Source: Yuukianura sp. NJ FZ-2021 (lineage: Eukaryota). Taken from it: DNA of 64,000 nt. Location of the stretch: positions 12,710,001-12,774,000 of the forward strand of contig CM102286.1 in assembly GCA_046563655.1 (NCBI GenBank), written 5' to 3'. Below the pieces are notes generated by a model. It saw nothing but the letters and a program-made list of their open reading frames with translations, ran no database searches and was not told where the DNA came from. Of the stretch, positions 2,864-43,315 are shown one piece after another (position 1 is the stretch's first letter; each line of letters starts with the position of its first letter). A program made the position numbers and the translations under genes.

Positions 2864-3046
2864 CTACACAAGAAAGAGTAAACGAGAAATTGAATTGGAG
2901 CGTCTGGTGTTCAGGAAAAAGTAAACTTTTTAGATTTATAACTCAATTTCCTTTTCAAAGAAGAAGAAGAACTTGGAAATTATTATTTTTCATTCAGTTC
3001 CTTCTTCTTCCTGAATAACTTCCATTTCCTTTTGCCAAACACTTAC

Positions 3047-3188
3047 AAGTAAAACTTTTCGTTCCACACGGGGTTCAGTTCCTGCAACATTGTTCTTGTC
3101 CTCTTCTTGACTTTGCCGACTTGAACTGTAACGTAGGGATCGGAAGTGCCACTTTTATCTTTGGCAATCAGGCCTTGAGCACAAATAA
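3047..3188 (-). CDS. unc-13: C2B exon [48 protein letters not shown]
   Basis: gtacag|TT ATT TGT...TAC TT|gtaagt; Ca2+-binding loop 1 aspartates intact. Confidence 0.98.
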
Positions 3189-5259
3189 CTGTACGATGAA
3201 AAAGAGAAAGGAAATTAGTTACTCCCCGAAGTTGAATTAGACTTGAAAGGAGGATAAATGGCAGTCTCTGGCACAAGCACAGGCAACAACGTGTTGAACA
3301 TAGAAGAAAGAGGAAGAAGAAAAGCGAAGATGCTGTTACTCTGCAGAAGAAAAAACATCAATTTCCTAAACACAGATTTGAAGAACAAGCCAAAAAAGCC
3401 ACAGGAATTTAAGATGTTAAGGTTAAATGGAAAGTGAAAGGAGCAGAGAAAGTGGAGAAACATCAAACATCCTCATTTCCGTTTTGTTTTTCATCCAAAA
3501 CCTAAATTCTTCATCATCTTCGCATCTTCACATCGAAAAATCCCTTTGATCTCTGTTTACTCTTCCTCTTTGGCATGTTGAGGATTATAAGCACCAAAAA
3601 GTTGGTCCAATCTATTTTGGAAGACTGTGAGAGTCTTGTCAAAACTTTAAGCTTTTTTTCAGTCTTGCGTCGTATCGTTAACTTTCGTAGCGTCTTCCCA
3701 AATTCGCTTGGGAGATATTACTTTCTCCTTATCTCATTATTCACTTTCTCACAGGTCCCCATAGGCCGATGCTTTCTCCACTTTCACCCCTAACCACTCC
3801 GCTCTCCAATACACTTCCAGACTATCAAGATCAGAACAAGAGAGGAACCTCCAGTCCATAAAAATTGAATAAATGCTACGGCATTCTCATGCATTGACAA
3901 CCAGACACGCCAAGTACATAAAACCACAACAGATAACCTTAGGAAAACTGTGCAACAAGGGAATGGAGAAAGTGGTGTAGAGGGAACAGAGCAGTCACCA
4001 CATCAAGGCAAAATTGTAATTTGACTACTTCAAAAAGCTTTGAAGAGTGTGAGTACAAAGGCACAAAACCGCAACACGATAAGCATATTTATAGGCTCAT
4101 GTAACTTTTATAACTTTTAACTACATTTCATGAGCTTTACTAGGAACATCATCTGAAAATACGAAGAGCGGAAATGAGCAAAAGCCTTTCACTTTCTATT
4201 TCATTTATGACATGACCTACACTAGGTCTCAGTGGGTTTGTTTACTCCTACGGTTTAACACTAACCAACTATGATCTTGTGAACTACACTAGAGATTTCA
4301 GTGTCGCTGTACTTATTATGCCTAAACTAATCACATGACTAGATTATACCCACACTGCAAAAATTATACCCTAGGCAAAAATTGGTAGACATTGTGCAAA
4401 GTGGTGGCTATAAAAACATTAAGATAGAACTTTATGTGAAATACAGAAACTTTTTTTTTTATATAAAAAGCTCTTTTGGCAAAAACTAAAATATTTCATA
4501 GCGCCTGAAAAACACTACCTTATATGCAAGATTTTCCCTTGGATGGCGCATTTCATTTACGGTTATATTTTTTTTTTCAAAATTCGACAGTTAGAATAAC
4601 GTCAAGTTTTTGATTGACTAGCAACTATCGTGTATTCCAAAAGTGAGTTTCATCTTTCTCTGCACAAAACTCATAAGCTCCAAAACCTCCACGGCGAGAG
4701 ATGGGAGATGAGATGGAGAAGTTACACAGGGAGGAAAAAAAGATGAAACTCACTTTTGGAACACACGATACAATGTAAGGCGAGATTTTTTTTTAATATA
4801 GAAAACCTGGGCACTTTTTTTTTACCAAATTTTTGCCAGGGAATTTACTTTCACTCCAAAAAATTTCTTAGTAACTAACGGACGTCAGCGCGTGTAAAAC
4901 TGCAAATGAAAATCGTGAATCTCGAGAGCGTCTAGTTTTAAAAATCTGCTCCAACTATCCAATTTCGCAGCGGCACAACTCACTAGGCAACTACTTTTCT
5001 AAAAGGGCAGCCTTTGACAAAGGTGTAAGTAATAAAAAAGTGTTTGTCACTGGAGTTACTAAAAGTGAGAAAAAGTTGCGAAACAAAAAAGTTACTAAAG
5101 GAGAGCAGAGATGTGTCAAAACTATAACAAATTAGAATTGGATAAACGTGAAGTGCCAGAAAAATTTAATTAACACCTCTGCATATCACTCTGTAGCTGA
5201 CTAATTACTACTGTTTTGGTATATTCGACAAAGGGATTGTACAGAACTTAAGTGTATAC

Positions 5260-7115: not shown

Positions 7116-8110
7116 CTAAAATTACAGAAAGAGAATCCGAGAATTTCAGAAACTTCAGGAATCCAGTGCGCCCATCTGCTCTCCATTGACTTGATTTTGA
7201 CCTCTCTTGACCTGTGATTTTCCATTCAATTAATCCCACCAAAAAACTCAAAATCATAAAAAAAAAGAACCAAAAAATCAAAAATCGACAAAATCAAAAC
7301 CCAAAATGTGAATAATCAATAGCAAAGCAAAGCTCGGCTTCGCCTGAAAAACTTTTACCCGGCAAGTTTTGTCAAAAAAAAAATTATTTTTAGCTCGTCT
7401 CGCCATTGTTGTTGGCAGTTAAATAAAAAATTCAAAAACTAAGAATCATTTTTTAGTATTATGTTTCAAACTGGAAATTCCGGTGATTTTCCAGTTCTAA
7501 AATAGCCATAATTCTGTTCGTCCACGGCCAATTTATTAAAATGAGGGCTCATTTCCTCATACATTTTGAACCATTAGTCTAAAATTTACCAATGAATCTC
7601 TTTTGGTGACACTTTGGCCAAAGGCATTCTCTTTTCCTTTCCAGATTCCCATCCATTTCACTTTCACTTTTGATAATGAAAATCAATTGAATTTAAAAGT
7701 CAACTTAAAAGGAAATGAAAGGGAAAGAGAAAGTTCCTTTTGATCTCCTGTTCCAATCTACTACCAAAGCAACCAAAAAGTTCCTTAGAAAATTTTCCAG
7801 ATAAGAACCGAGAATGAGGCCGCTCTCAACTGAGAATGAACAAATCGGATAAAAAACTTAAAAAGAAGTCTTTTTCCAATGGGTTGGAAAGCAGATGGAA
7901 AAGACTGAAAACTTTCTTCGCCTACTCAAAAAGACTAAAAAAAAGTTTAAATCAGTTTTAACTTGGACAATCTGACACAATTTTTATAGGCACTACACCA
8001 CCGCCTACTTTTACCATCGTAGAACCTAAAATGTTAAAATGTTCTAGACAACTGGGCAAAAACTTATTTTTTTCGTAGTGAAACTTTTGGCGCGCTAAGT
8101 TTTTGATTTA

Positions 8111-8439
<329 letters not shown>

Positions 8440-11115: not shown

Positions 11116-11206
11116 CAATTCGGACACCAAAGGAATGGATTTCCGCCTGGGTCGAATGTCAGGCATACTGTCGATTGTGGAGTAGAATGGATTGTCACTA
11201 GGATGA
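11116..11206 (-). CDS. unc-13: 91-nt exon HPSDNPFYSTIDSMPDIRPRRKSIPLVSEL
   Basis: ttttgcag|T CAT...GAA TTG|gtaaga; carries the conserved Unc13 IDSMPD..IPLVS motif. Confidence 0.96.
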
Positions 11207-11594: not shown

Positions 11595-11632
11595 CCGCTT
11601 CCGCGTGCCCCATCAATTCCTCCGCCACCGCT
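11595..11632 (-). CDS. unc-13: 38-nt Gly-rich linker exon SGGGGIDGARGS(G)
   Basis: gagcag|AGC GGT...AGC GG|gtaaga. It supplies the phase 0-to-2 bridge needed between the CaM exon and the next exon. Confidence 0.75.
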
Positions 11633-13196: not shown

Positions 13197-16100
13197 GAGT
13201 TCAGAATAAATTATGTTTACGACTGCCGTTGGATTCTCTTTCTCTTCAGCCTTTTTCTCTTTGAGCGTTTTGAGGAAAGACCATTTACTACCAAGGCGAC
13301 CATCGTATTTTCCCGCCTCTTCCGCAGTCATTCCCGCCAGAGCCTCTTCATCAACCGACATAGACCCATCCAGCATCCGTTCCCGGAAAGAACGATGCTC
13401 TTCCATCAATTGTGACTCTGATATACTTCCACGCTGCTCTCCAGCATCAATTGACCCTGTCCGATCCTCACTTCCGAATTTCTTAAGGTCACCCATGGAC
13501 AACATATCAAGTAATTTACGAGGAATTGACAGCGTTGAGCCTCCAGTGGTAGACTCTCGTCTACTACTGGCCGTTGTTACTGGAGGTGTTCCAATTGCCG
13601 CATCAATTCCCAACTGCTTTCCAGAGGCAGAAGTATCTTGATCTTCCGCGTCATCGGCCACTGCTGCAATTTCTTCTTCTTCCTCAACAGATTCCTGTGG
13701 AGTGTCAGGCCCACTCGTCTCGCCTGAAGATCCCTCAGTCTCCTTTCCCTGTTCTTCTGGAATGTCTTCCCGCCAAATATTGTCACCTAAAGAACTAGAC
13801 GAGGGAATGCTTATTGAAGGTCGTTCTTCCGTTGTAGTCGTTCTAGAATTGTCTCGACTGTAGATGGCAGATTCTGAGCTCCTAGCACTCACTGAATCTT
13901 GTTGACTTTCTTTACTCTTGGATTCATTGATGAGCAACATTGTAGATGGTGGAGGCGGTTCAATCATGGATCCAAAGTCAAGCGAACTTCGACCTGAGTC
14001 ATCAATTCCTTTACTCCAGACGGACTTTTCGGAATGGTCGTAATCGTAGTCATCGTGGGAAGTAGACCGGCGCCGACTCACGTAGCCCAATGGCTCATCT
14101 CCCATTGAATCCTCTCTCTTCAGAACTCGTGAGCCTGGAAGGCTTTTACCAAACGAAAGACGTCGTTCCAAATTAGGTTCTTGTTTACGACCCTCTTTTG
14201 TCACGGTAGTTGCAGAGAGGATTTGACTTGGAAGACTTCCTTCTGGAACGGCTGACGCAGCCTTCAGAAGTTCCTGTAAAACAATGTTCATGCGTTCCTT
14301 CATGTCCACAGTGGCTGCAGTAGGGATTCCATGTTGCGAGGGAAAGTTGGCTTGTGAATATGGATAAGAGAAAGCGTACGAATCTGCTGTCTGTTGACCT
14401 CCACTACTTTCGATGGCCAAAAGCTGTTGCCGTTCCAATTCTTCCAATTTTCTTAATTCATATTTGTACCATTCATCTTCACTGTCAATTGAATCTTCCG
14501 TACTTTGGCGGCGAGAGCTCACACGTGAACTTCTATAAGAATGAGTACTTCGCGTGTCATCCTCTTCGGACAAGGTTCGTTGTTGCGGTAGGTCAAGCCT
14601 GTTTTTACTGACTCTCGTGACACTGTCTGAGGAACTGCCCATGTCCGTTTCACTAAACGATTTTGTACCTTGAGTTTGCATGATTTTTGGAGAAGAACGC
14701 AGAGAAATGGAACTGAGACTCTGTGTTCCTGGAGACACTGATAGAGTTGTAACAGGCAGCGTAGGTTGTGAGGTCGAGGTCACTGCGTTTCCAAATGTTT
14801 GCAAAAGAGGGGAAGATGCAATTGATTTTTCAAATTCAGTCAAATGGTCATCGTCTGGACTTAGTCTCTCTTTCATAGAATCGGAAATGATGGGAATTCC
14901 TAAACTTTCTCCAATTTCCAAATCCGAAGGCCGCACTGTTTTTGTTTCGTCTGTAGTTGGTGTTTGATCTTTCGTTTGATCAACCAATGGTAAACTTTCT
15001 TCTGTTTCCGCAGTTGGGATTGGTGGAGTGGAAAGTTCATCATCTCTCAGTCTTACTTCTTCGTCTACACTTGTACTTCTGGGTGGCGGAGGTCGTGGAG
15101 GAGGCGCAGAATTATTGGCTTGTTTCTGACGATATTTTCCTACAGCCCGAGAAGCAGCGAATTCACCCGAACTTGATGCAGTAGAATGTCGGGCCAAATC
15201 GGCTGGACTCGTTGGTGACTTCTTTTCATCAAATTCTTGACTACTTAGCTGGTCACCGCCTTTTTTGGCATCTCCAATGGTTGCAAAAAGGTCAGAGGCT
15301 AGGTCAGGCAGTTGACCAGTCTCTGACTCTCCAGCGCTCTCTGACATTGTCCGACGAACCGAAGAAGGTGTTTTGGGAAACAGTTGACGTGTGGAAGCTG
15401 GTTGAGTACTTTCACTATCGGAAAAGTGTCGATAAGGACGACTCCCGCGAGGTTCTTTATGGTGACCTCTGACGGGCATTCCACCTTGAGCTCTCCTTCT
15501 ATCCGAATCGGAAACTTCTGAGTCTTCCGACTGACTACCCCAACGTTTATGAGCCTTTGTGATTAGACCAGACATGGTGGACACGATGGAGTGTCGCTTT
15601 CGTTTATGTTTCGTTGTGAGCGAAGGCGGTGGTGCATGTTTGTGCAGATCTGGTTGACTTCCAGGAAGGGAGTTGGAGCGGTTTCGTTTGAGGGAGCCCA
15701 TACTAATGTCCGGAAGCCAATTTCCGACTGAGTGCATTGCAGATTTGAGGGTATTACTCTTCTTAGGTTTGGTTCGTCGTTTTCCTTCATTAGCTCGTTC
15801 TACAGTATCCGGAACGAGAGGACCAGCGGCACGACCCGCCGGAACGTATCCCGTGGTAGACATGGCCGGAGGGCCTGGAGCACCTCGATAATAAATCGGT
15901 TGTCCCCTATTGTCACTGAGAGGGTCATGCACTCTCCTATCCTGACCTTGACCTTTGAACCTTGGATCCTGGGAGTCTTGTCCATAAGCGGCTATGATTT
16001 GTTGTTGAACGTCGTAGTAGGTCTGTGGACTGGATCCTACGCTGACGTATTGCCCTCCGGCGGTTCCTAGAACATTTTGCATTCCTTTGATCATTCCTTC

Positions 16101-19100
16101 ATGTCTTCTATTGGATACGACTTCTTGGAAGTCGGTGGGACTTGATGACTTCCGTTCTCTGAACTCATCTTTCTCTGTCACCAGATATGATGGATTTTCA
16201 TAACAACCATTTTTACTTGGAAAGTACGAAGCAGCAGTAATACTATTTCGATATTGAGTATAGTAGTAGTTAATACTCGCTTCCCGTTCTCTACTTTCCC
16301 GCTCCAGTTTGGCTTCCTCAAAATACTGCTGCTGTCCATAAATCTCATTGACATTGGCCTGGTGAACATCAGAAATTGATCTTGCATTACCAGCAGTATA
16401 GTAGGGAACTGATGCAGAATAATTATTGGATCTGGCGGCGCCTGACGAGGCCGTTTTCTTGTGTCTCCTTTCTCTGGGCGTGTAACTCTGTGTACTGGAG
16501 TCATCCGAGTCACTTCCAGGGAAAGCAACGGCTCTTGATGCTTGAACTTTGTCGTTTGTTCCTCTCGGAGAAAGTTCATAAGTACCAGCCCTCTGCCTGT
16601 TATGCAACACTGTTCCTCCACTTCCAGATCGATTTCTGTGATAGGACATAGAGGATGAACCTCGACTTTCTCCAACGCCGCCGCTGCCAGCAAATGGACT
16701 TGAATCTCTGGAGTCAAGAGAAAGTCCGCGCCCAGCATACCCACCACCAGAAGAAGGAGAAATAACAGTTCTGTAATGTGTCATTGTTTCCAGCCCAAGC
16801 CCAATCCCAGTCTGCTGAGCAGGATAAACAAGTTGAGACTCCTGGAGGAGTCTTGATGGACCCATTTCAGCAGGAGCACAAAAGCTATTTATACCACCCG
16901 CATAGCCAGTTGAAACTGAACCACCAATAGGAACACTGTATCCTCCAGCCGCGATATTCTTAGTACTTCCAAGTGGACTTCGAGCTCTGTCCAGAGGCAT
17001 CAAGTCAGCCGGAATGTCCAATGAACCAAAGTGAGGTTGAGACGACGACAAATTGATATTTCCCAGGGAAGAGCTGGAGTAGGATCCCAGAGTCACATCC
17101 GGCGGTAAAAGTTCTTCCTTTCTCGGAGTTCTACTGCCACTGCCACGGAGTCTCATCTTGGATTCAGTTGACGTCACAGGGTAGCTAATACTCATGGTTG
17201 TAGCCGTATGTGATCCCATGTTGGCAAATCTTGATGGACTCGTTGGTGATCTCTCGACACTTGACCAGTAGCTCAGTTCCGAAACGCCAGAATCTGATCT
17301 GGCATGCATTAGAGACGGCGTGGACCGGGAAGGTTTTGGAGAGCGTGGACTTGGACGAATGTTGGGAGCTATTGGGCCTCCTTCGTCACCTAATCCATAA
17401 TTCTCTGGATTAGAAAGTGGAATTGATGATAGATCATTGAGTGGAGAGTAGTCTGGAAGTGGACTTAGGCGGGTAGGAATGGAGTGTGACATAAGACTAC
17501 TAGTCAAAAGCCCACTTTCACTTCCAGTCGGAAATGAAGTGTCATATTGATTAAAGTCATCCGCTCCAAGTTTACTGGACCTTATTGGACTTGGACTTGC
17601 TCTCCGTGGACTTCCAATTACTGGAGAACTACTTGGATAAACTGGACTCTTTGGAATTGGACTCAGACGGGAGTCTACTGTAGTTAGTCCTCCAGAATTT
17701 GAAATTCCTCTGTAAGACGGACTAAGCGGGGGTCTTGGACTCAGAGGTCTGGCAACATATCCATCTTGTCTCGTCCTTGGACTGCCTGTCACTAGATCGC
17801 TACTTGCACAAACAGCAGAACTTCTGTCGATTCCACTTAAATTTAAAAGTGGAGATCCATCACTGTAGTGTTGGCCTATTACATTTCCATAGTCATCAGT
17901 CGATGAGGAGTAGCCGAGAAGCGGAGATTTTGGACTCGTTTTGCTTGGCGACATGCCATGAGTTGACAGACGACTCGGACTGGACGGAGAAATAATCGAG
18001 ATTTTATCAGATCTTAGTATGTCTCCAGATCCAGGAAGTGTTTCAGCCAAGTACATGTAATCAGCATAGTTTGGACTTGGGGATATGGTTCTACTCAGAG
18101 CCAATTCAACTCTGTCCACTCTGTTTGTTTTTGAGCAAGTGCTGGAGAGGGCTGTAGATTCAATACATGGGATTGGACTTGATGCTGAGCTACGTCCATC
18201 TTCTGAAACCAACAATGTCGATGTCGGAACCGTACCGGTACCGTCTTCATCTTCTTCTGCAAGGCATAACCTTCGAAGCGATTCTTCCAGTGGTGTTCTA
18301 GTTTTCCTTTGCCGAGAGGGCGATCGACTGGCACTAACTTTCGGTATGGCGTAAATCTCACTTCGATTTTTCGAGTTCATTGTATAATTCTGAATTTGGA
18401 GTAATTGATTTTCAATTCGCTCAATATTGGCTAGCATTGCCTCAGTCGAATCCAGTGAGCTGGTGCTAATTGGTTTTATTTCGTCCGGTTTCGCAACAGC
18501 AATTTGATTACTTCCACGGTACTCCTTGTAGTCTCCTGCCGTGAACACATCAGTCTCACCTTTCGACCCGTCACTTCTCATATTAAGTGGTTCTGGCCTA
18601 CTTTCTCCGTCTAAAAATACTCCTAGATCGCCAACTTTCTCTTGGTGAGCAGCAGTCTTTTCCACTTCGATTCCACTTTCTCCAATCCTACTTTCAGCAG
18701 ATTGTCCAGAAGACGCTTCTTCCTTTTTGCTCAACTCAGGCGAAGAATCCATCGTAATTTTATCTCCAGTCTCTAATAAGTCTTCTTCCCAAATGAGACT
18801 CAGTTCCTGATCCTCTCCAGCTCCATTTCCCGAGTCACGATGAGCCACATTCAAGCTTCTGTAAAAAGCTTCGTCAGGAACTTTGGAAACTCTGCCAGTA
18901 TAACCGCCTAGCCCTCTATTTTCAGAATCTGTCGATTGAGACATATCTCCATTATGATGACGACCAAACCCACCACCACTTCCCGGCTGATTATCTGGAT
19001 CTTCTTCGTGATCTCTCTGTCCAATAATGTCTCCTCCTTCGTCATCAGCCTGTTCTCCCTTCATGATCCTACTAATAATACTCTGCTGTTTAGTGAGCAG

Positions 19101-19430
19101 AGCCTCTGCTTTCTCCATTCGATTCCACATGACTACGTACTCTTGAGAAAGGAGGTCGAGAGCCTTCCAGGCATAACGAAGTTCAGTTTCAAGAACGGAG
19201 AGCCGAGAGGCCAACTTCTCCATGTAATCCGATAAGATCCCATCGATATTTCCAGCCGAGGCGGGTGGATTCAAAATTCCAGCAGTCGTCGACCCTTGAC
19301 TTTCTTCGTTCGTTGCGTTTAAAGGTTCGCTCCTTGCGTTTCCAGGCACAAAGTCAGCAGTACTAGTTCGTCCACCTCCCTCACCTGGAGTCGTGTCACT
19401 CTGGTGGGCCGATATTAGCCCAATGTCCAT
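13197..19430 (-). CDS. unc-13: Giant alternative N-terminal exon (2078 codons), Unc13B-type intrinsically disordered N-terminus
   Basis: Uninterrupted 6.2-kb ORF inside the unc-13 intron on the same strand, with phase-0 donor TCT GAA CTC|gtaagt. Contains the coiled coil LETELRYAWKALDLLSQEY and the SIDSEDEWYKYELRKLEE motif, both resembling insect Unc13B N-termini (from recall, not searched). Confidence 0.88.
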
Positions 19431-22400
19431 TTCTCTCTCTACTGTGCCCTTTGAGCGACAGCTCCTCCGCCTTCCAGAATTGTAAAGTAAGAAGTAATTG
19501 AGAGGTTGCTGGAAGTCAAGACTTGAGTTAGTGGTTGGTGCTGCTGCCCATTGCCCAGCTTAGGTCCAGCACCCGCTCTTGCGTCGTTCCGTGGAGAAAT
19601 TTTAGAGAGAGAGAATGATTCCGCTGAGACACCCACAATTTCTCTCGTAAACATCCATTAAGGATTGAATTATGATCCCATCGTTCGAGACAGTTCCTCC
19701 GACGCGTTTGCTTCCTTTCTTTACGTTTAGTACGTTTACTCTTGTTTCACTTTCACTCTCTTCCGACGAACCTACTTTACTTTCACTATCACAAAAGGGA
19801 GCTCTGTGTAGCTTCCAGCGCAATGAGAAATCTGCCCTCCTAAAAAGTTACCAAACCAACCACCACAAATGGAGGAACAGAATTGAAACGTGTAACTTTT
19901 ACAAATTCCAGAAAGATTCCGTCTGCCAAAAACAGTCCGTAGACAAAAAAAATACTTTCAGGGAACACAGTGCATATTTATGTGAAGACTTTTAAAGCTT
20001 GCTTTGGTCGGTCATGTTCCCTTCCTCCTGCTTTCCAACAAAGACAAAGTCAGTACTTTCCTACAACTCGTTTTACTTTTACTCTCGGTCGTTACAAAAG
20101 CATAAAAGTAGGCATCTTACTTTTGTTCCGAAAAGACGTGACTCCTGCGCACGACCATCTCATAACTTTTCACCACACAGAAACCAAAGACCTTTGGAAC
20201 TCTAATTATTCCGGACTTTGATTGTTATGGATTTCATTTCCGAAAAACCTAACTTTCTACCCGAAACTTCTCAACTTCACCAAGAATATGCGTAGACTAT
20301 CGCATGTTTTCTTGCCGTGGTGAAATGACAGGATCAAATGACTAGCCTTCAACAAAGTCAAGACAAATGCTTATCTGAACCTAAGGCATAATTATTCTGG
20401 AGAAAGTCAAATTCTAAGTGGTTTTGGCTTACCTAGGCAAATCCTAGGGGTTTTCCAGCACAAAGTGAATGGAACAGCTTTAGCCATTTTTAGCCTCTTT
20501 CCCTTAATTCAACGAATGACGAGCAAAACAACCGGAAATTAGGCACATGAATTATCCAGCAAGAGAATTAGTCTGCCCAGCAGCGGCAGTGTTGGCTGGA
20601 CAAACCAAAAACGGCTTTTGAACTCAATGAAAACGGACACAGTTGTGGAAGTTCCCTTGACAAAGAGGAGACCAAGTCAGGTATTAAACCAAATGCTAAA
20701 AGTTTGCGGCCCAGATTAAGTTTGCATGTCTGCCCACGTCTTTCTCAAATGACAAAACGGCTTAACTTTCCAACGCTTTCGAAGCATTCAAAGAAACCGC
20801 ACAATGGCATTATAGTAAGGTGAAAAGATACTCTCTTATACTTTTGGTTACAAAAGAGGAACCTAATTTCTGCATCAGAAGGAGCAAGTTGTAAGGAACC
20901 AAGACATAACAATATGGCGAAAACTTTAAGCAAAAAAGAGGACTTTAGACATACTTTCTTGGTTCACTTCAAGACATAACTTTCTTTTGGTTCAATTCAG
21001 TTGACTCGAAGAGAATAAAAATCGAATTTAGAAAGTAAAAAAAAAGTAGAAAAGCACAGGAGAGGAAGAGAAAAGAATTGTGAAAGGAGTAAAAAAAATT
21101 CATAGAAACGGCGCGAAATGCGACCAAAAACGGCATGAACAAAAGCGCGTAAGCTCAACTACTTTCTCCTGACACAAAAAGGCAGTACACAAAGGAAAGG
21201 CCAAAGCCCAGTATTGACTTTTCTCCTGCCCTGTTCTTTTTATAGCAGTCTTTTGTAGCCTTTACTTTCATTCCATTGCATTTTGAACCTAAAAGTGAAA
21301 GTGCCTAGTTAATATGCGATACGACTAGATGGAGGTTGCAAAAACCAGGGAGCAAGGATCACCAAAACTTTTGGAACAAACTCTACTGTTCCTCCTGAAG
21401 CCAAAAGACAGCACACAAGAACTTAAACTAATTATGCAAATGTACATTAGAAACTTGATAGAATCGTCAGCAACAAGAGTTCCAAGGGAACGCAGACGCC
21501 TCCAAATTTAACTTTTCCAAAATACTTTGAACTTTGAAAAAATTTTAAAGTCCACAGTCATCGGAATGACTCGGATTTTACATCCCGAAACAGAGTGTCA
21601 AACTTCTACATTCTTCCAGTCTTCTGTTTTAGCACAAACTCGTTTCCATAATTCATGAGATGGATTGTCCCAGATTCCTGCACTACAAAAATTTTTAACT
21701 TTTACACTAAAACACACAAAGGAAAGCAAAACAGGGGCACAGGAGGACAAAACCCCCTGGTGAAAGTTGACAAAAATTCCAGGAAATATAACTTCCGTTT
21801 TATAAAGTTTTCAAAACTTTAAGAAACAATTCCACATGATTTAAGATCCGGCAAACACAAGTTTTCCTTCGTTTGTAAAAACACATTCCAGTGTGCTTTT
21901 GGCCTCTCTTTTTCATATATAAACTGTTTCTCATATAAAGACCAACATAATGTGCCAAAAAGATGGAAAATGATGACGTAGAAAATGAGGCCAGCAAGAT
22001 TATCACCTCATTTCATGGACTCGTGAGCAAAAGCATAATATCTCTTCTAGCACAATTCCAACACCTCCCTGGATTCAACCTACTTTCACTTCTGTCACTT
22101 TCCCTATGCCTCACCACGCTAACCACAACCAAGTCCACTTCCAAAAGTCCTTGGATCATTTCCTAATTCTCATTAGACTTTGCCTCAAATAAATATCTCC
22201 CCAATATAAATATCTCTGGAGGACAGATAGCGACATGATCCAATGTGGTGGATGCCAACAACTTAACTCAACTCTAAACGATGACGATGGATCTCTTGAT
22301 TAAAACAGGCTTGGCAGACCAAAAAGCTTTCTCTGCCTACAGTGCCTCAGTGGTTTAACGAGCGACACTCAAAACAAGTGTTTTCACCAAATTCTTCCTC

Positions 22401-29680: not shown

Positions 29681-29715
29681 ACTCACCTAAAAAACTAAAG
29701 GAAAGGAGGAAGTGG
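29681..29715 (-). other. Second candidate recursive splice site (AG|GTGAGT at 29687/29686)
   Basis: Minus strand reads cttcctcctttcctttagtttttt ag|gtgagt. Confidence 0.4.
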
Positions 29716-32460: not shown

Positions 32461-33417
32461 AGGTTAACAGTACTACCGCAGGGGCGAAAGCCGCCATTTT
32501 GCGAAACTTGCGTCATGATTATCTCCGCGCTGCAACTTAAAATTGTTTGTACAAAGTGCGCAGTTAATTCAAAATCTTCAAAGTTCAAACCTTCAAAAAC
32601 AATAGACTGTTAGATTTGAATCAAACTGAAATCCCAATTTGGGTTAAACTGAATCCCTACAAATCATATTTGGTCCAACGGAAACGTTAATTCAGAGAGC
32701 AACCTTTCCCTCCTTGTCTTTCCCGAGAGGACAAAAACAAGTTTACAAGCCAAATCCCGTAGTTTCCTGCAGACTCGTTCAAAAATTCAATCAAAATCCA
32801 TTAGTTTCTTAAACATCAATAATTAATTTGGAAGTTGGCCAAGGGGATGAGCAAAAGCTTAACTTTTCACCGCCATTCTATCAGAACTTGAGCTTCGGTG
32901 TCCCCCAATGGCGCTTACCAAACGTAATCCTCCCATTGTCTTTTAATTGAAATTTCCTTGCAAAAACTTTTGTTGCATTAAAATTGTTTTTTTTTTTTTG
33001 GTTGAACCAAAGTTAATTAACCTCCAGGCTTTAGTAAATACAAAAAGCATAGGCGTGTTAATTAAAACTATTTCTCCAACGCTTAATCACTCCCAAAAGT
33101 ATTTTTTGTCACCTACAAACATTAGCTTTACATGTTTCACCTTAACTTTGGATGCTTCATCAAAGTTTAAAAATCTTGCAAAAAATTACCGTTTAGGTAT
33201 GTCTTTTTTTTTCTAACAGAATCAAAAAATTATGTTAGGCAATTATGTTAAAGTTAGGTTTAGGTTAGAATTTGGCAAAAAAAAAAATCATTGTCAACAA
33301 TGGGAATTAGATATCTACGAGTTTCTAAAACTGAAAGTCTTATGCCCAATTTTCGAAAGTTTCAACTGCAGTCAAACTTTCACTGCGCGAGATAAAAAAA
33401 ATAGATCATAGGCTTAC

Positions 33418-33530
33418 CTGAGTTTAGCTGAGCAAACGGCCTTGAATTGGATTTTGATCACATCGATTGGTAAAAATAGAAAACAGATAGTACTTACCTA
33501 AAAAAAGGGGAAAAAACAAATTATTAGCAT
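33418..33530 (-). other. Candidate recursive splice site (AG|GTAAGT at 33498/33497) with an 80-nt cryptic RS-exon
   Basis: Minus strand reads gctaat aatttgttttttcccctttttt tag|gtaagta, followed 80 nt later by CAG|gtaagc. Confidence 0.6.
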
Positions 33531-34952
33531 TTCATAATCAGTCAAACACAATTTCCAAAACGTTTAACTTTGTACACAGTTTTGACATTTGGATTTAGCA
33601 GCGCAGGGGAATGACTAACCACTTCTGTTTACGTATTTGAAAAGACGTTAATCAGCCACAAAGATAAATGAATTTCCAAATACTATCCCATAAATCACTA
33701 ATTTTAGCTCCGTCAAGTTCGTCTCTATTGTCAATTTTTCACCGTCATGTCATGTCACATCTGCATTGGTAGCAAACATTGGTTCAAGTGGTTCTTCTGG
33801 AGCGGTGCCTCCAAGTCCCCACGGTCTACTTTCTCCTAAAACTAAAGCAATCCAAGCAAAACCTATGAGACCATCAACATGGACGAGATTGGATATAATT
33901 TGAATCCTGCCGCCAAAACTGGTCCCGGACTTAATTTAGGAGAAAGCTAGCTCATCCCGCTTTCACTCTGATGATAATGTCTTCCCTTCCCTTGTGTCTA
34001 CCATGTTAGGCTGTACACAGGGTTGCACTAGCGAAAACCTACAGTTTAATGGGCGTTCCATGTGCAGTCGGCAGATCAAGGACACCGCCCTTCCGCTCCG
34101 GCGGGAATTTCCGGATTTTTAAACTTTATTTCCTTTCCCCTCTATTTCAACTTTCGAAGTGTACAACTTTAGCTTCCATTTAAAACATACTAGACAAGCA
34201 GTACGAGTTGGTTTTACAGAAGAACCTATCTATTAATACAGTTCAGTTAGAATTGCCGCTTTCTCGCAACTTTTCAACACAAGGCAGATTTCTTTTCCTC
34301 CTACGCCACTAACGAGCTAGGAAAATGCGCGATACTTAAAACGCAACAAAACCCTCTCCTTTGGACTTGTTGTGCATCTCCATTAAACCTTAAGTTTGAT
34401 GATCCACTCAAACAAATTTTTCCTGTGCAACGTGCAACCTTAATAGTAAAAAAAAAATTGGGAGTTATTCGTCTGGAAGTGTTTCTTTTCAACACAATTT
34501 CGAAAAAGAAAATAGCTTAAGATGTGGAATTCGAGTACCTTTTCTTGCTTCATTTAAAACGTTCGCAAAATGGTTTCTAGCATCAGCTTCACAAAAGTCA
34601 AAAGTAAAGAAACTTAACAAGGCAAAAAACTTTTCCAGATCGAAAACTAGAACACAACCTTATTGACATTACAAATTTGAGCTTGCTAGCATAAATTGAG
34701 AGATTCGTAAACTGTTTCCCCAGAAAGTTGCTTTTTCGCAATTCCTAAAAATTCGTCGTAATCAAAAACAACAGAACTTTTGAAAAAGAAAATTTTTGAC
34801 TATAAAATAGATTCAACAAACATTGCGAATTAGAGCAACTAACGAAACTCTCATTAAGCAATCCGAACATTTCCATTTAACTCATTTAACATTTTTGACT
34901 TTGGTCAATTTTGGCTCAAGTTTGGCCAATTTAGTTCCGCACAAAACCTTAC

Positions 34953-36038
34953 CGCAATTATAGAAAACTGGAGTTGTGTTAGCTGTCGTTGCTTGATCAG
35001 CCGTGAGAGGCGCTTAGCTCTCTCCGCCGTTTGTAAAGGTTCCACTAGAAGCCTGTCGCCCATTTTCGTACTGTTGGAAGACGTCGCAGAACCTAGGTCA
35101 CCTAAACCATTTTTCCGCTGAGGATCCACTTTACTACAAAGAGCTGGAGTGAGTTCAAGACGCTGTGTATCAGCCAAAAAGATTTTAGGCTCCTTTTTCT
35201 TTCTAGGTGGCAATGGAGGAGCGTCTGCAGAATCCAAAACTGAATTGAGAGACGTTGACCCTGGAAGCTGTGCGATGTCTTTGCGACCTGAGAGAGCACT
35301 GTCTGATGAAGAATGTGAAACGGAATGTGACGGAGATGAGGGATATGAAGCTGAAATTGGCGTTCCAGTGTCACCTCCAGCATGTTCACTACTTGCTCCA
35401 TCATTTGTTCTGATGAATAGTCGATTTATGTTAATGGGACTGTTGCTTCCAGGCTGGATAATTTCGTCATTCCAGACAAAACCACCACTCTCTTCATGCC
35501 AGGACTCTGTTCCATGGATGTTCAGAATGGGAATGGACCTACTATGTTCTCCAGTGACATGACTGCCGTTGATTCCCAGACGGTCCAGCTCTTGTTTAGA
35601 CAAAGAGTTGGCTGACAGCGGTCGCTGCGGATGATGGCGTAAGGTTGCCGTAGAGTGACCAACAGTTTCCAGCGGAACTGTCATGGCCAGGAGTTCAGAA
35701 TTTGAAAGAGAATCGCGATTCGTACCATACTTCATGGCGTTCATCAAGTCTCCAAAACTCCCGACATTTCCTGTAATGTCTCCAAGGGATTTTTTGGACT
35801 TCCAAGTGAATTCGGTTCCAGGACTGCCAGCATTGGTCAACCTTGGCAACGAGTGCGTGCCGGAAGCGACGGGAAACAGCTTTGAAAGATTCAATTGCTG
35901 CTCTTTGTCTCGCATTGACTGAGGTCTTGAGCCTCCGCTGCGATGGTGTTCATCTTTCCCTGGCGGCGACATCTTCTCGTTTGCAGCTTTTGAACTGTCC
36001 GGTATTGTAGTCAAACTGATAGAAATCCGGCGGAGCAT
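34953..36038 (-). CDS. unc-13: Alternative first coding exon of unc-13 (362 aa, Ser/Pro-rich, ends AERAKRLSRLIKQRQLTQLQFSIIA)
   Basis: Long ORF on the unc-13 strand inside its intron, with phase-0 donor GCG|gtaagg compatible with the downstream phase-0 acceptors. Confidence 0.72.
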
Positions 36039-39585: not shown

Positions 39586-39702
39586 CTGATGCCCATTACA
39601 ATCGATCGCATTCAAATCTTCAAATCCCTCCTCCATCACTTCATCTTCCAGGATAATTCCAAGATCTCTTTTTCGTGTTACTGGAGACACTTCTGTTGCC
39701 AT
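39586..39702 (-). CDS. Candidate short alternative first coding exon MATEVSPVTRKRDLGIILEDEVMEEGFEDLNAIDCNGHQ (39 aa)
   Basis: aacaATGG start context, upstream in-frame TAA, 117-nt open frame, phase-0 donor CAG|gtgaga. Confidence 0.45.
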
Positions 39703-41146: not shown

Positions 41147-43187
41147 CTGAAGTGTAGAGCAGATTCGATTTACAGACCAGAGCCACTTCTCCTTGGACGT
41201 CATGCCTTGTGTATGTCTCTCCGGAACATTTTTTGGTGGCTCTTCGTCAAATGATACTGTTTTGGGGCCCTTATCTTTCCCTGGAACGTCTAACGATGCC
41301 TTCCTCTCTGATACTGATTCTTCATCGATGCTCACTTGTTGTGATTCTAGTTTTTGATGATCTGGAGGTGGAGATGTTGGCGGAAGCGTCTCACCTAGTG
41401 AGTCAACGGAGACGCTCGAATGTTTTCTCATGAAAGGGTGTTGAATTTCATCTTCGTCGTAGTCTCCCAAGTACTCTTGGTCTGCCACGTCAATTGAGCC
41501 TTCCGTTGTTTCTTGACGACTTAGCTCTCGTCTGACCTGACTGCCCTTCTTTTTTGGGGTCCAGTCGTCTGTATGGTCCAGGGAACTTCGGATACTTGCT
41601 CGCCCGCCAGACATCCATTCAGCTTCACTCTCCCTTCTACTTGTCACGCCTTTTTCCCCAGCTCCGCTAATCGACGATGCTGGCGGTGAAAACGGGCCTT
41701 CGTCGATTGATTCCAGTCGCTGGAGCGGTTGTTGGATTTGTTCAGGCACATCGAATGACCCGTACCCATTTGTGTAGTAATCCTGTGAATCCTGAGAGCA
41801 CATCGTGGCTTGTTCAGCAATTCGTTCCCTTTGACGCTGCCAGTATTGAGCTTCAAACTTTTCGTTGGCATCTCTGTCTCGAGTTCCAGGCTCAGAAGTG
41901 TTTGATTCCAAGGAGTCCATGTGTACCGGGCCTTCGCTATTGTTGCCTTCGGCAGCAGTTGATTGTTGGTCCATAGCCTCGTCATAGTGGTCGTATGCAT
42001 CTGTAGCAATAGTTTCTCCTTCCGCGTCGGCATATTCTTGACTTGTCCATGCACTGCCGTAGGCATCAGCATACATAGTACTTTGAGAATCGATTGTTTC
42101 TTGTTGTTTGAAGTTCGCTTTATTCCCTTTGATCGTTTCTGGAATTGGCTCAGGGGGTGCTTCTGATGATCCACCTTCCAATCCATAATCTCTGGTTGAG
42201 GTTTGCCTTCGGAAACCACGTCTGCGCAGAACGGAGTTGGCACGTTCGAGAAATCCCTCTCCTTTGGAAGGCTGATCAAAGGATGAGGATAAGTTATCTG
42301 TGCTGGCGTAAGCGTAGTTATACTCAACACTCGGCTGTGACTGAAAGCTCTGCTGCCGACTTCCTGCCGGAGGATAAGCAGAGTCCCTTACATCCGTGAA
42401 TTCTGCTGGATGATGACTACCGGTCTCCTCTGCATCTTGACCATAGTAGTAAGAATCGTCAAAGCTTTGTTGTACAGCGTCGTCGTAACTGTATTCCTGG
42501 GAGTATTGCGGTTGTACTTGTGCTGGGGCGGTAGCCTTCTGGTTAGCCCTTGTTCCGTAGTAGTTGGTGTCATCGTAGTTCAATTGTGAGGATTTTTCGG
42601 GTATATGAGTTTGTTGTGTGTCCGGCTGATCGTAGTAGTTGTAGCTGCCCGACGTGACGGGCGCAGTTTCTGTCGGGACAAAATTGCCACTCTCATCGTA
42701 GTACCCGTTGTAAGGAACGAAATTTCCGCTTTCGTCGTAGTAGCCATTTGTAAAATCCCAATTCTCATAGTCAAATCTCTCGTCCTCGTATTGAGATTGG
42801 CCGAGGTTGTCTGTGATTTGAGGTACGACTTGATCTGTATTGGGATAAGTGTAGGTTTGGGGAGAGTGACCATATCCTGTAGCATTAGAAGTCGCTGTCC
42901 CTGAATTGGAGTAAACGGATTGATTCTGGGGAGTTGAAGCGTTTGCTTGAGTTTTGTTTAAGGTTGTTCCGGAGGACATGGTTGGTGACGGATGGGTTGA
43001 AATTGAAGGAAAAACTGAAGCAATTGTTTTCTTGAGACTATTTAGGCCAAATTGTTGCTGGAAGGTTGGTTTTTCTGGTTGGTTCTGTTGTGTAGGAGGC
43101 GGATAAGGTTGAGAGTATTCTATTGTAGGCGGAGGAGGACCGTGGTCCCTCGGAGTGGTAGCGGGATACCAGGAATCGTAGGTGTAG
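41147..43187 (-). CDS. unc-13: Large (2041 nt) acidic, Tyr/Gln/Ser-rich exon ending in the calmodulin-binding motif KEKWLWSVNRICSTLQ
   Basis: gtttcag|C TAC ACC... runs in frame into ORF 41117..42979; donor CTT CAG|gtaagc (phase 0). The C-terminal motif resembles Munc13-1 KANWLRAFNKVRMQLQ. Confidence 0.92.
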
Positions 43188-43315
43188 CTGAAACAACATT
43201 CGAAAATTAGTATAACATCAACCCCGAGGATTTCATAATTTTTTAAGGAACTGATTTCAAGAACCTTGTTAAATTAATATTTCTTTTTCAAAAGATTCAA
43301 GTTGTGTAAAATCAC

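Follow-up and report, generated by a model that had tools for sequence, protein, structure and literature searches.

What is the function, if any, of an acceptor AG that is followed without a gap by the donor sequence GTAAGT and, 80 nt further on, by another strong donor, when the whole arrangement lies in a long 5′ intron of a gene that appears to be unc-13? The question was raised by an earlier note on the 64,000-nt stretch of DNA analysed here (the window). Judged from the sequence elements and their retention in an orthologue, the locus is probably an intronic recursive splice site, or ratchet point, with a cryptic RS-exon in the long 5′ intron of an unc-13 gene. In the following, the host intron and the site are described, the conservation and rarity of the site are assessed, and the recursive splicing model is weighed against its alternatives and compared with the ratchet points known from flies.

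Host gene, intron and site architecture

The unc-13 label is supported by an exon at 3043-3357 (-), as it matches Pfam C2 and has its best solved relative in the Munc13-1 C2B domain (E 3.7e-19). From its architecture and its fly-like splice features, the gene is taken to be that of an insect. The exons that bear on the intron are listed below, with a slash marking the splice junction.

41147-43273 (-): large upstream coding exon, inside a 718-codon open frame; ends CAG/GTAAGC, phase 0
39586-39702 (-): short alternative first coding exon with a Met start; ends CAG/GTGAGA, phase 0; the 5′ boundary is approximate and set at the Met
34953-36038 (-): upstream alternative coding exon with a conserved Met start; ends GCG/GTAAGG, phase 0
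13197-19559 (-): very large N-terminal exon (2,121 codons) belonging to a different unc-13 isoform; the single open frame here counts 2,137 codons from stop to stop
11632-11595 (-): common 38-nt exon, at which the long intron presumably ends; the exon after it begins at 11206

For the exon ending at 41147, the 5′ boundary given is provisional. The 39586 and 34953 exons have the appearance of alternative first coding exons, since in both of them the starting Met is kept in an orthologous metagenome contig, L001, after a preceding sequence that is unconserved and contains stops in at least one species. A phase-0 exit is common to the exons ending at 41147, 39586, 34953 and 13197, and the 38-nt exon (11632) has to be entered in phase 0 for the exon at 11206 to be read in its conserved frame; it is this reading frame that points to 11632 as the likely final acceptor. 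Accordingly measured, the intron spans 23,320 nt (34952-11633), or about 28 and 29.5 kb when counted from the donors at 39586 and 41147. The distances from donor to ratchet point are 1,455 nt (34953), 6,088 nt (39586) and 7,649 nt (41147), and 21,865 nt remain between the ratchet point and 11633.

At least four alternative N-termini appear to feed the one common 38-nt exon of the unc-13 gene. The huge exon at 13197-19559 (-) probably starts near 19430; its donor is CTC/GTAAGT at 13197/13196, and it is located within the intron that hosts the ratchet point.

The elements of the site itself are as follows.

33528-33523 (-): candidate branch motif GCTAAT, with 33524 (-27 relative to the exon start) as predicted branch A
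33520-33500 (-): polypyrimidine tract of 21 nt with a single G; 19 of the 20 scored positions are pyrimidines, with TT at -5/-6
33500-33498 (-): acceptor TAG, directly after the pyrimidine tract; the AG is 33499-33498
33497-33492 (-): putative ratchet-point donor GTAAGT, directly adjoining the AG
33497-33418 (-): candidate cryptic RS-exon of 80 nt, open in phase 0, with exit in phase 2
33420-33418 and 33417-33412 (-): CAG and GTAAGC of the RS-exon donor CAG/GTAAGC; the last exon base is 33418

The earlier note had described the branch motif, the tract of about 20 nt and the TAG/GTAAGT junction, and every letter and coordinate of this description is correct on the minus strand; the letters of the second donor, CAG/GTAAGC, also match at the claimed distance of 80 nt downstream of the ratchet AG. 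Its description of the 80-nt exon as open in phase 0 with a phase-2 exit is reproduced by our translation, which gives 26 residues with 2 nt left over, although by our estimate a 26-codon open frame in an exon of 80 nt is nothing remarkable. The splicing arithmetic proposed there holds as well, namely that the frame is kept when the 80-nt exon takes the place of the 38-nt exon (11632-11595) and is joined to 11206, and that it shifts when the 80-nt exon is joined to 11632.

Conservation in an orthologous contig and expectation by chance

All conservation evidence comes from one pairwise comparison, that of the window with L001, a metagenome contig of 8,638 nt that was located via a protein search with the 34953 exon through the close relative P0002. 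Searches confined to longer proteins and to near lengths gave P0001 and P0002 alone, and the full representative protein search with this exon returned six matches. Four of these (P0001, P0003, P0004 and P0006) are copies of the exon at a greater distance; P0001, P0004 and P0006 run past the exon end into apparent intron, hence they seem to be genomic open reading frames and are uninformative on splicing. P0005 looks unrelated (E 2.3e-4), and alignment-based scans of genome contigs and viral contigs yielded no further relative.

The window is collinear with L001 from 43126 to approximately 33700, a stretch that takes in all three coding exons upstream of the site along with several islands within introns. 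The exon ending at 41147 has 66% nucleotide identity to L001 86-2089, with the L001 donor at 2077; the counterpart of the 39586 exon is conserved and ends at 3227; and the 34953 exon is orthologous to P0002, encoded at L001 6155-7267, with 57% amino-acid identity in a MAFFT alignment and 49% and 58% by other tools. The CAG, CAG and GCG ends of the three exons, as well as the CAG/GTAAGC donor, are conserved.

Downstream of the last of these exons, the elements of the proposed site recur in order. In L001, 843 nt separate the donor at 7267/7268 from a CAG/GTAAGT in a pyrimidine-rich setting (8110/8111). Conservation of the AG/GT in relatives had been put forward in the earlier note as a check of the ratchet point, and in this one orthologue AG/GTAAGT is indeed retained, identical and at the collinear position (8109-8116). 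The branch motif is TTAAT in L001, with its A at -25 as compared to -27 in the window, and lies in a shared GAAAT..TAATAAT block; the TT at -5/-6 is kept, and 14 of the 20 positions are pyrimidines there vs 19 of 20 in the window. At the other end of the exon, the 9-mer CAGGTAAGC is identical in L001 at 8199-8207 and places the donor CAG/GTAAGC at 8201/8202.

The body of the RS-exon is in contrast poorly conserved save for an 8-nt core, TGATCAAA, and is interrupted by indels of 6, 3, 2 and 4 nt. Its L001 counterpart (8111-8201) is 91 nt long vs 80 nt in the window, and the only residues common to the phase-0 translations are the first two, encoded by the GTAAGT, which is identical after the AG in both species while the following ~20 nt differ. 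The earlier suggestion of a frame-compatible coding exon that acts as an isoform switch finds no support in these data, because the lengths of 80 and 91 nt are 2 and 1 modulo 3, respectively, the indels are partly non-triplet and the translations are unrelated after two residues; an in-frame alternative exon is therefore unsupported, and a conserved coding cassette exon was rejected for the same difference in length and the absence of peptide similarity to L001. The further proposal that the frame outcome would depend on which upstream first exon is used fails on the common phase-0 exit of the exons ending at 41147, 39586 and 34953. What does differ among these exons is the donor that they would regenerate, which is CAG/GTAAGT behind 41147 and 39586 and GCG/GTAAGT behind 34953.

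The selectivity of this conservation can be judged against the surrounding intron, which is otherwise largely unalignable: blastn of the window vs L001 gave no alignment across the site at E<=1. The window segment 34952-33200 holds ten AGGT, and collinear L001 partners exist for two of them, both being the proposed sites; similarly, the only GT[AG]AG in 34951-33200 are the ratchet donor and the RS-exon donor, and both are conserved. The retention of branch motif, U-rich tract, AG/GTAAGT and downstream donor around a drifting, frame-breaking exon is as the recursive splicing model predicts. With all elements kept in L001 in collinear order and the exon body and intron diverged, the earlier reading of the locus as a ratchet point with an RS-exon is supported by the comparison.

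How often such an arrangement would arise by chance was estimated from dinucleotide shuffles. The 8-mer AGGTAAGT is found once within 128 kb (both strands of the window), where about one per strand is expected, and 104 of 300 shuffled versions of the intron (23,320 nt) contained it, so that its bare occurrence is at chance level. A composite motif, in which AGGTAAGT is preceded by 20 positions with 14 or more pyrimidines and followed after 30-150 nt by a GTRAG donor, appeared in 2 of the 300 shuffles. For the L001 intron (1,371 nt, n=2000) the corresponding counts are 40/2000 for the 8-mer and 1/2000 for the composite. On the sense strand, AG/GTRAG sites with at least 14 of 20 pyrimidines number two in all, one of them the ratchet candidate. 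The window sequence by itself, without the orthologue, is suggestive rather than conclusive.

Several other intronic segments are also similar between the two species. Noncoding islands at 33937-33885 and 33741-33728 (-) match L001 7757-7815 and 7916-7929, an identical 14-mer included; they lie 200-440 nt upstream of the ratchet point and could be splicing enhancers or transcriptional elements. Blocks at 37187-37086, 36862-36832, 38491-38442, 39973-39944 and 40845-40799 (-) have 80-97% identity to L001, sit between the upstream exons and may be promoters or 5′ untranslated regions of the alternative first coding exons. The presence of such further blocks in the same intron implies that some of the local constraint has nothing to do with splicing.

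The recursive splicing model and its alternatives

In the model that we favour, the 80-nt RS-exon would initially be recognised by exon definition through its CTAAT branch motif, U-rich tract, TAG and CAG/GTAAGC donor. Whichever upstream exon is present in the transcript, ending at 41147, 39586 or 34953, would then be joined to 33497 with removal of 7.6, 6.1 or 1.5 kb, respectively, and its ligation would regenerate the GTAAGT at 33497-33492 as a 5′ splice site. The junction so recreated, CAG/GTAAGT or GCG/GTAAGT, would be spliced to the 38-nt exon at 11632, taking out the remaining 21.9 kb, a segment that would include an internal promoter and the 2,121-codon exon of the other unc-13 isoform, and the RS-exon would normally leave no trace in the mRNA. 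What was observed directly is that the sequence elements are present, that they are rare and that one orthologue has kept them selectively; from this we infer the use of the site and the order of these steps.

The same pattern is poorly explained by an ordinary cassette exon, by an upstream first exon or by chance, yet each of these has some points in its favour. The locus might be an ordinary regulated 80-nt cassette or poison exon, with the GTAAGT at its 5′ end being incidental or an occasional donor, and its inclusion would then lead to a frameshift, nonsense-mediated decay and less unc-13. The exon has a strong, conserved splice site at either end, its donor has eight of nine U1-pairing positions and equals or beats the regenerated donor behind the 34953 exon, inclusion ahead of the 38-nt exon does break the frame, and expressed RS-exons and poison exons are known categories (Joseph et al. 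2021). A plain exon, however, has no need for a GTAAGT at its start that is identical in both species when the next ~20 nt are not, nor does it account for the TT at -5/-6 and the very strong pyrimidine tract, both hallmarks of ratchet points; moreover, the exon body carries no coding conservation and its length differs by 11 nt, and altogether we regard a simple cassette or poison exon as unlikely. The AG/GTAAGT could on the other hand serve as the donor of an alternative first exon, absent from annotation and lying immediately upstream, with CAG/GTAAGC as its alternative donor, in which case the islands at 33937-33885 and 33741-33728 would serve as promoter or exon. In favour of such an exon, both species have conserved noncoding blocks 200-440 nt before the site, and the gene clearly has several alternative 5′ exons, but the conserved branch motif, the 21-nt tract and the TT at -5/-6 right before the GT would be left unexplained and the short ATG-initiated frames upstream are closed, and we hold this reading to be very improbable.

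A functionless juxtaposition, with the likeness to L001 as residual neutral similarity, seems still harder to accept and is given hardly any weight. The bare 8-mer is expected about once per window strand, as the 104/300 intron shuffles illustrate, and shared 8-mers are common between the two introns, with 57 in total; the composite, however, occurs in 2/300 shuffles of the window intron and 1/2000 of that of L001 and yet is found collinear in both, in an intron that is mostly unalignable elsewhere and for which blastn gave no match across the site at E<=1. Two other origins were examined and rejected. A repeat or transposon is not indicated, as blastn of 33200-34000 against the window gave the self-match alone above noise, and for a structured RNA, Rfam at E<=1 returned a single sub-threshold, snoRNA-like match on the other strand at 34384-34484, scoring 22 bits against a gathering score of 47.

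Within the recursive splicing model, the fate of the RS-exon would depend on competition between the regenerated donor and the donor of the exon. Counted against the textbook U1 consensus, the U1-pairing positions number 9/9 in the donor regenerated behind 41147 or 39586, 7/9 in that behind 34953 and 8/9 in the RS-exon donor. With 8/9 vs 7/9, skipping is not clearly favoured for the 34953 isoform, and the RS-exon may be partly included in it. Both species have CAG, CAG and GCG at the ends of their upstream exons, and for this reason we speculate that the competition could differ by promoter. In its extended form, the idea makes the ratchet point a shared landing pad for the three alternative first coding exons with a promoter-dependent outcome: the CAG exons would regenerate a perfect CAG/GTAAGT that beats the RS-exon donor and gives traceless splicing, whereas the GCG exon (34953) would produce a weaker donor, so that a fraction of its transcripts might keep the 80-nt frame-shifting exon and then be degraded. 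We consider this promoter-dependent arrangement unlikely; if true, it would constitute a built-in, isoform-specific dampener of one unc-13 N-terminal variant. Because the site lies between alternative promoters, it in any case lends itself to asking, in a natural setting, if the terminal nucleotides of the upstream exon influence the choice of ratchet donor vs RS-exon donor. The gene product is an essential factor of synaptic priming, and the site would represent a vulnerable point of the gene, as accidental inclusion of the 80 nt would shift the frame of all three isoforms made from the upstream promoters.

Comparison with known recursive splice sites

The juxtaposition of a 3′ splice site with GTAAGT is the same as in the Drosophila ratchet points (Hatton 1998; Burnette 2005; Duff 2015; Joseph, Kondo & Lai 2018; Joseph et al. 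2021), and the locus shares with these the TT at -5/-6, a branch near -27 and a host intron of more than 11 kb in a neuronal gene. In the set of Duff et al. (bioRxiv), TT at -5/-6 is present in 196 of 197 ratchet points along with a prominent pyrimidine tract, recursive branch points mostly lie between -36 and -21, host introns range from 11.3 to 132.7 kb and segments from 2.6 to 63.6 kb (the smallest being 2,596 nt), the flanks of ratchet points are more conserved than other AG/GT of the same intron, and there is a bias towards neuronal genes. The present intron of 23,320 nt, with its final acceptor 11632 deduced from the frame, falls inside the length range, as do the segments of 21,865, 6,088 and 7,649 nt within theirs, and the conservation of the flanks has its parallel in the proposed sites being the two of ten AGGT conserved collinearly in the one orthologue. 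One segment falls below the 2.6-kb minimum of the Duff set: from the nearest donor to the site there are 1,455 nt (1.46 kb) in the window and 843 nt in L001.

For the cryptic exon, Joseph et al. 2021 describe ratchet points that open a short RS-exon of ~50 nt closed by its own donor; SA/SD are ultraconserved, and the interior of the exon is poorly conserved and as a rule out of frame. The short downstream exon with its own donor, the conserved splice motifs and the diverged, frame-breaking body of the present site are all like those of the Drosophila RS-exons, although at 80-91 nt the exon is longer than the ~50 nt given there as typical. The same source has the ratchet donor usually outcompeting the exon donor, with hth as an exception. 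Among the expressed RS-exons that it treats (Ubx mI/mII, msi, ps and heph) the donor is strong, as it is here, so some transcripts might retain the exon; however, the Ubx microexons are described in it as conserved over their full length, wobble positions included, which the 80-nt exon body is not, nor is its length frame-preserving. Taken together, the sequence features examined agree with those of the fly ratchet points, with two soft spots in the short first segment and the strong RS-exon donor. Another difference from the Drosophila examples is the placement of the candidate site between three alternative coding first exons upstream and a fourth internal promoter and exon downstream. As ratchet points with RS-exons are well described in Drosophila, another case is a useful annotation rather than a discovery; it may be of interest that the architecture, RS-exon donor included, is kept in two species in which the neighboring coding exon is only ~57% identical in protein.

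A previously reported D. melanogaster candidate for recursive splicing carries the gene identifier FBgn0025726, which we take to be fly unc-13. This candidate, listed in the S1 table of Pai et al. 2018 (PMC6110457) as 4:904267-906385 with the site at 906313, is placed by that table 72 nt inside an intron of 2.1 kb, and its motif is weak, with a score of 0.73. It is likewise called a recursive site in the same gene family, but the intron is a different one and its sequence is unrelated to the site in the window, and a 37-mer from that fly intron had 0 matches when the window was searched with a tolerance of 3 mismatches, so that at this one place the DNA is not that of D. melanogaster. The Joseph 2021 LSA supplements hold no unc-13 entry, and in the supplements of Joseph & Lai 2021 PLoS Genet, unc-13 appears only among exonic cryptic sites suppressed by the EJC, on chr4. 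Among the papers searched, none connected recursive splicing with this unc-13 intron. A D. melanogaster counterpart may already be listed in the catalogues that supplement Duff 2015 and Joseph 2018.

A cryptic exon of human UNC13A is reported to be repressed by TDP-43 (Brown 2022; Ma 2022). It is likewise intronic in a gene of the unc-13 family, breaks the frame on inclusion and must stay out of the mRNA, but it differs from the present exon in intron, species and mechanism, which is repression by an RNA-binding protein and not re-splicing, and the parallel implies no homology.

A second ratchet-like site is present in the same intron at 29687 (-), spanning about 29720-29680, in a region before which L001 ends. 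No GTRAG donor occurs within 150 nt of it, and the nearest GT is a weaker GTAGGC ~187 nt downstream. Its acceptor side resembles that of the first site, with pyrimidines at 18 of 20 positions and TT at -5/-6, followed by TAG/GTGAGT.
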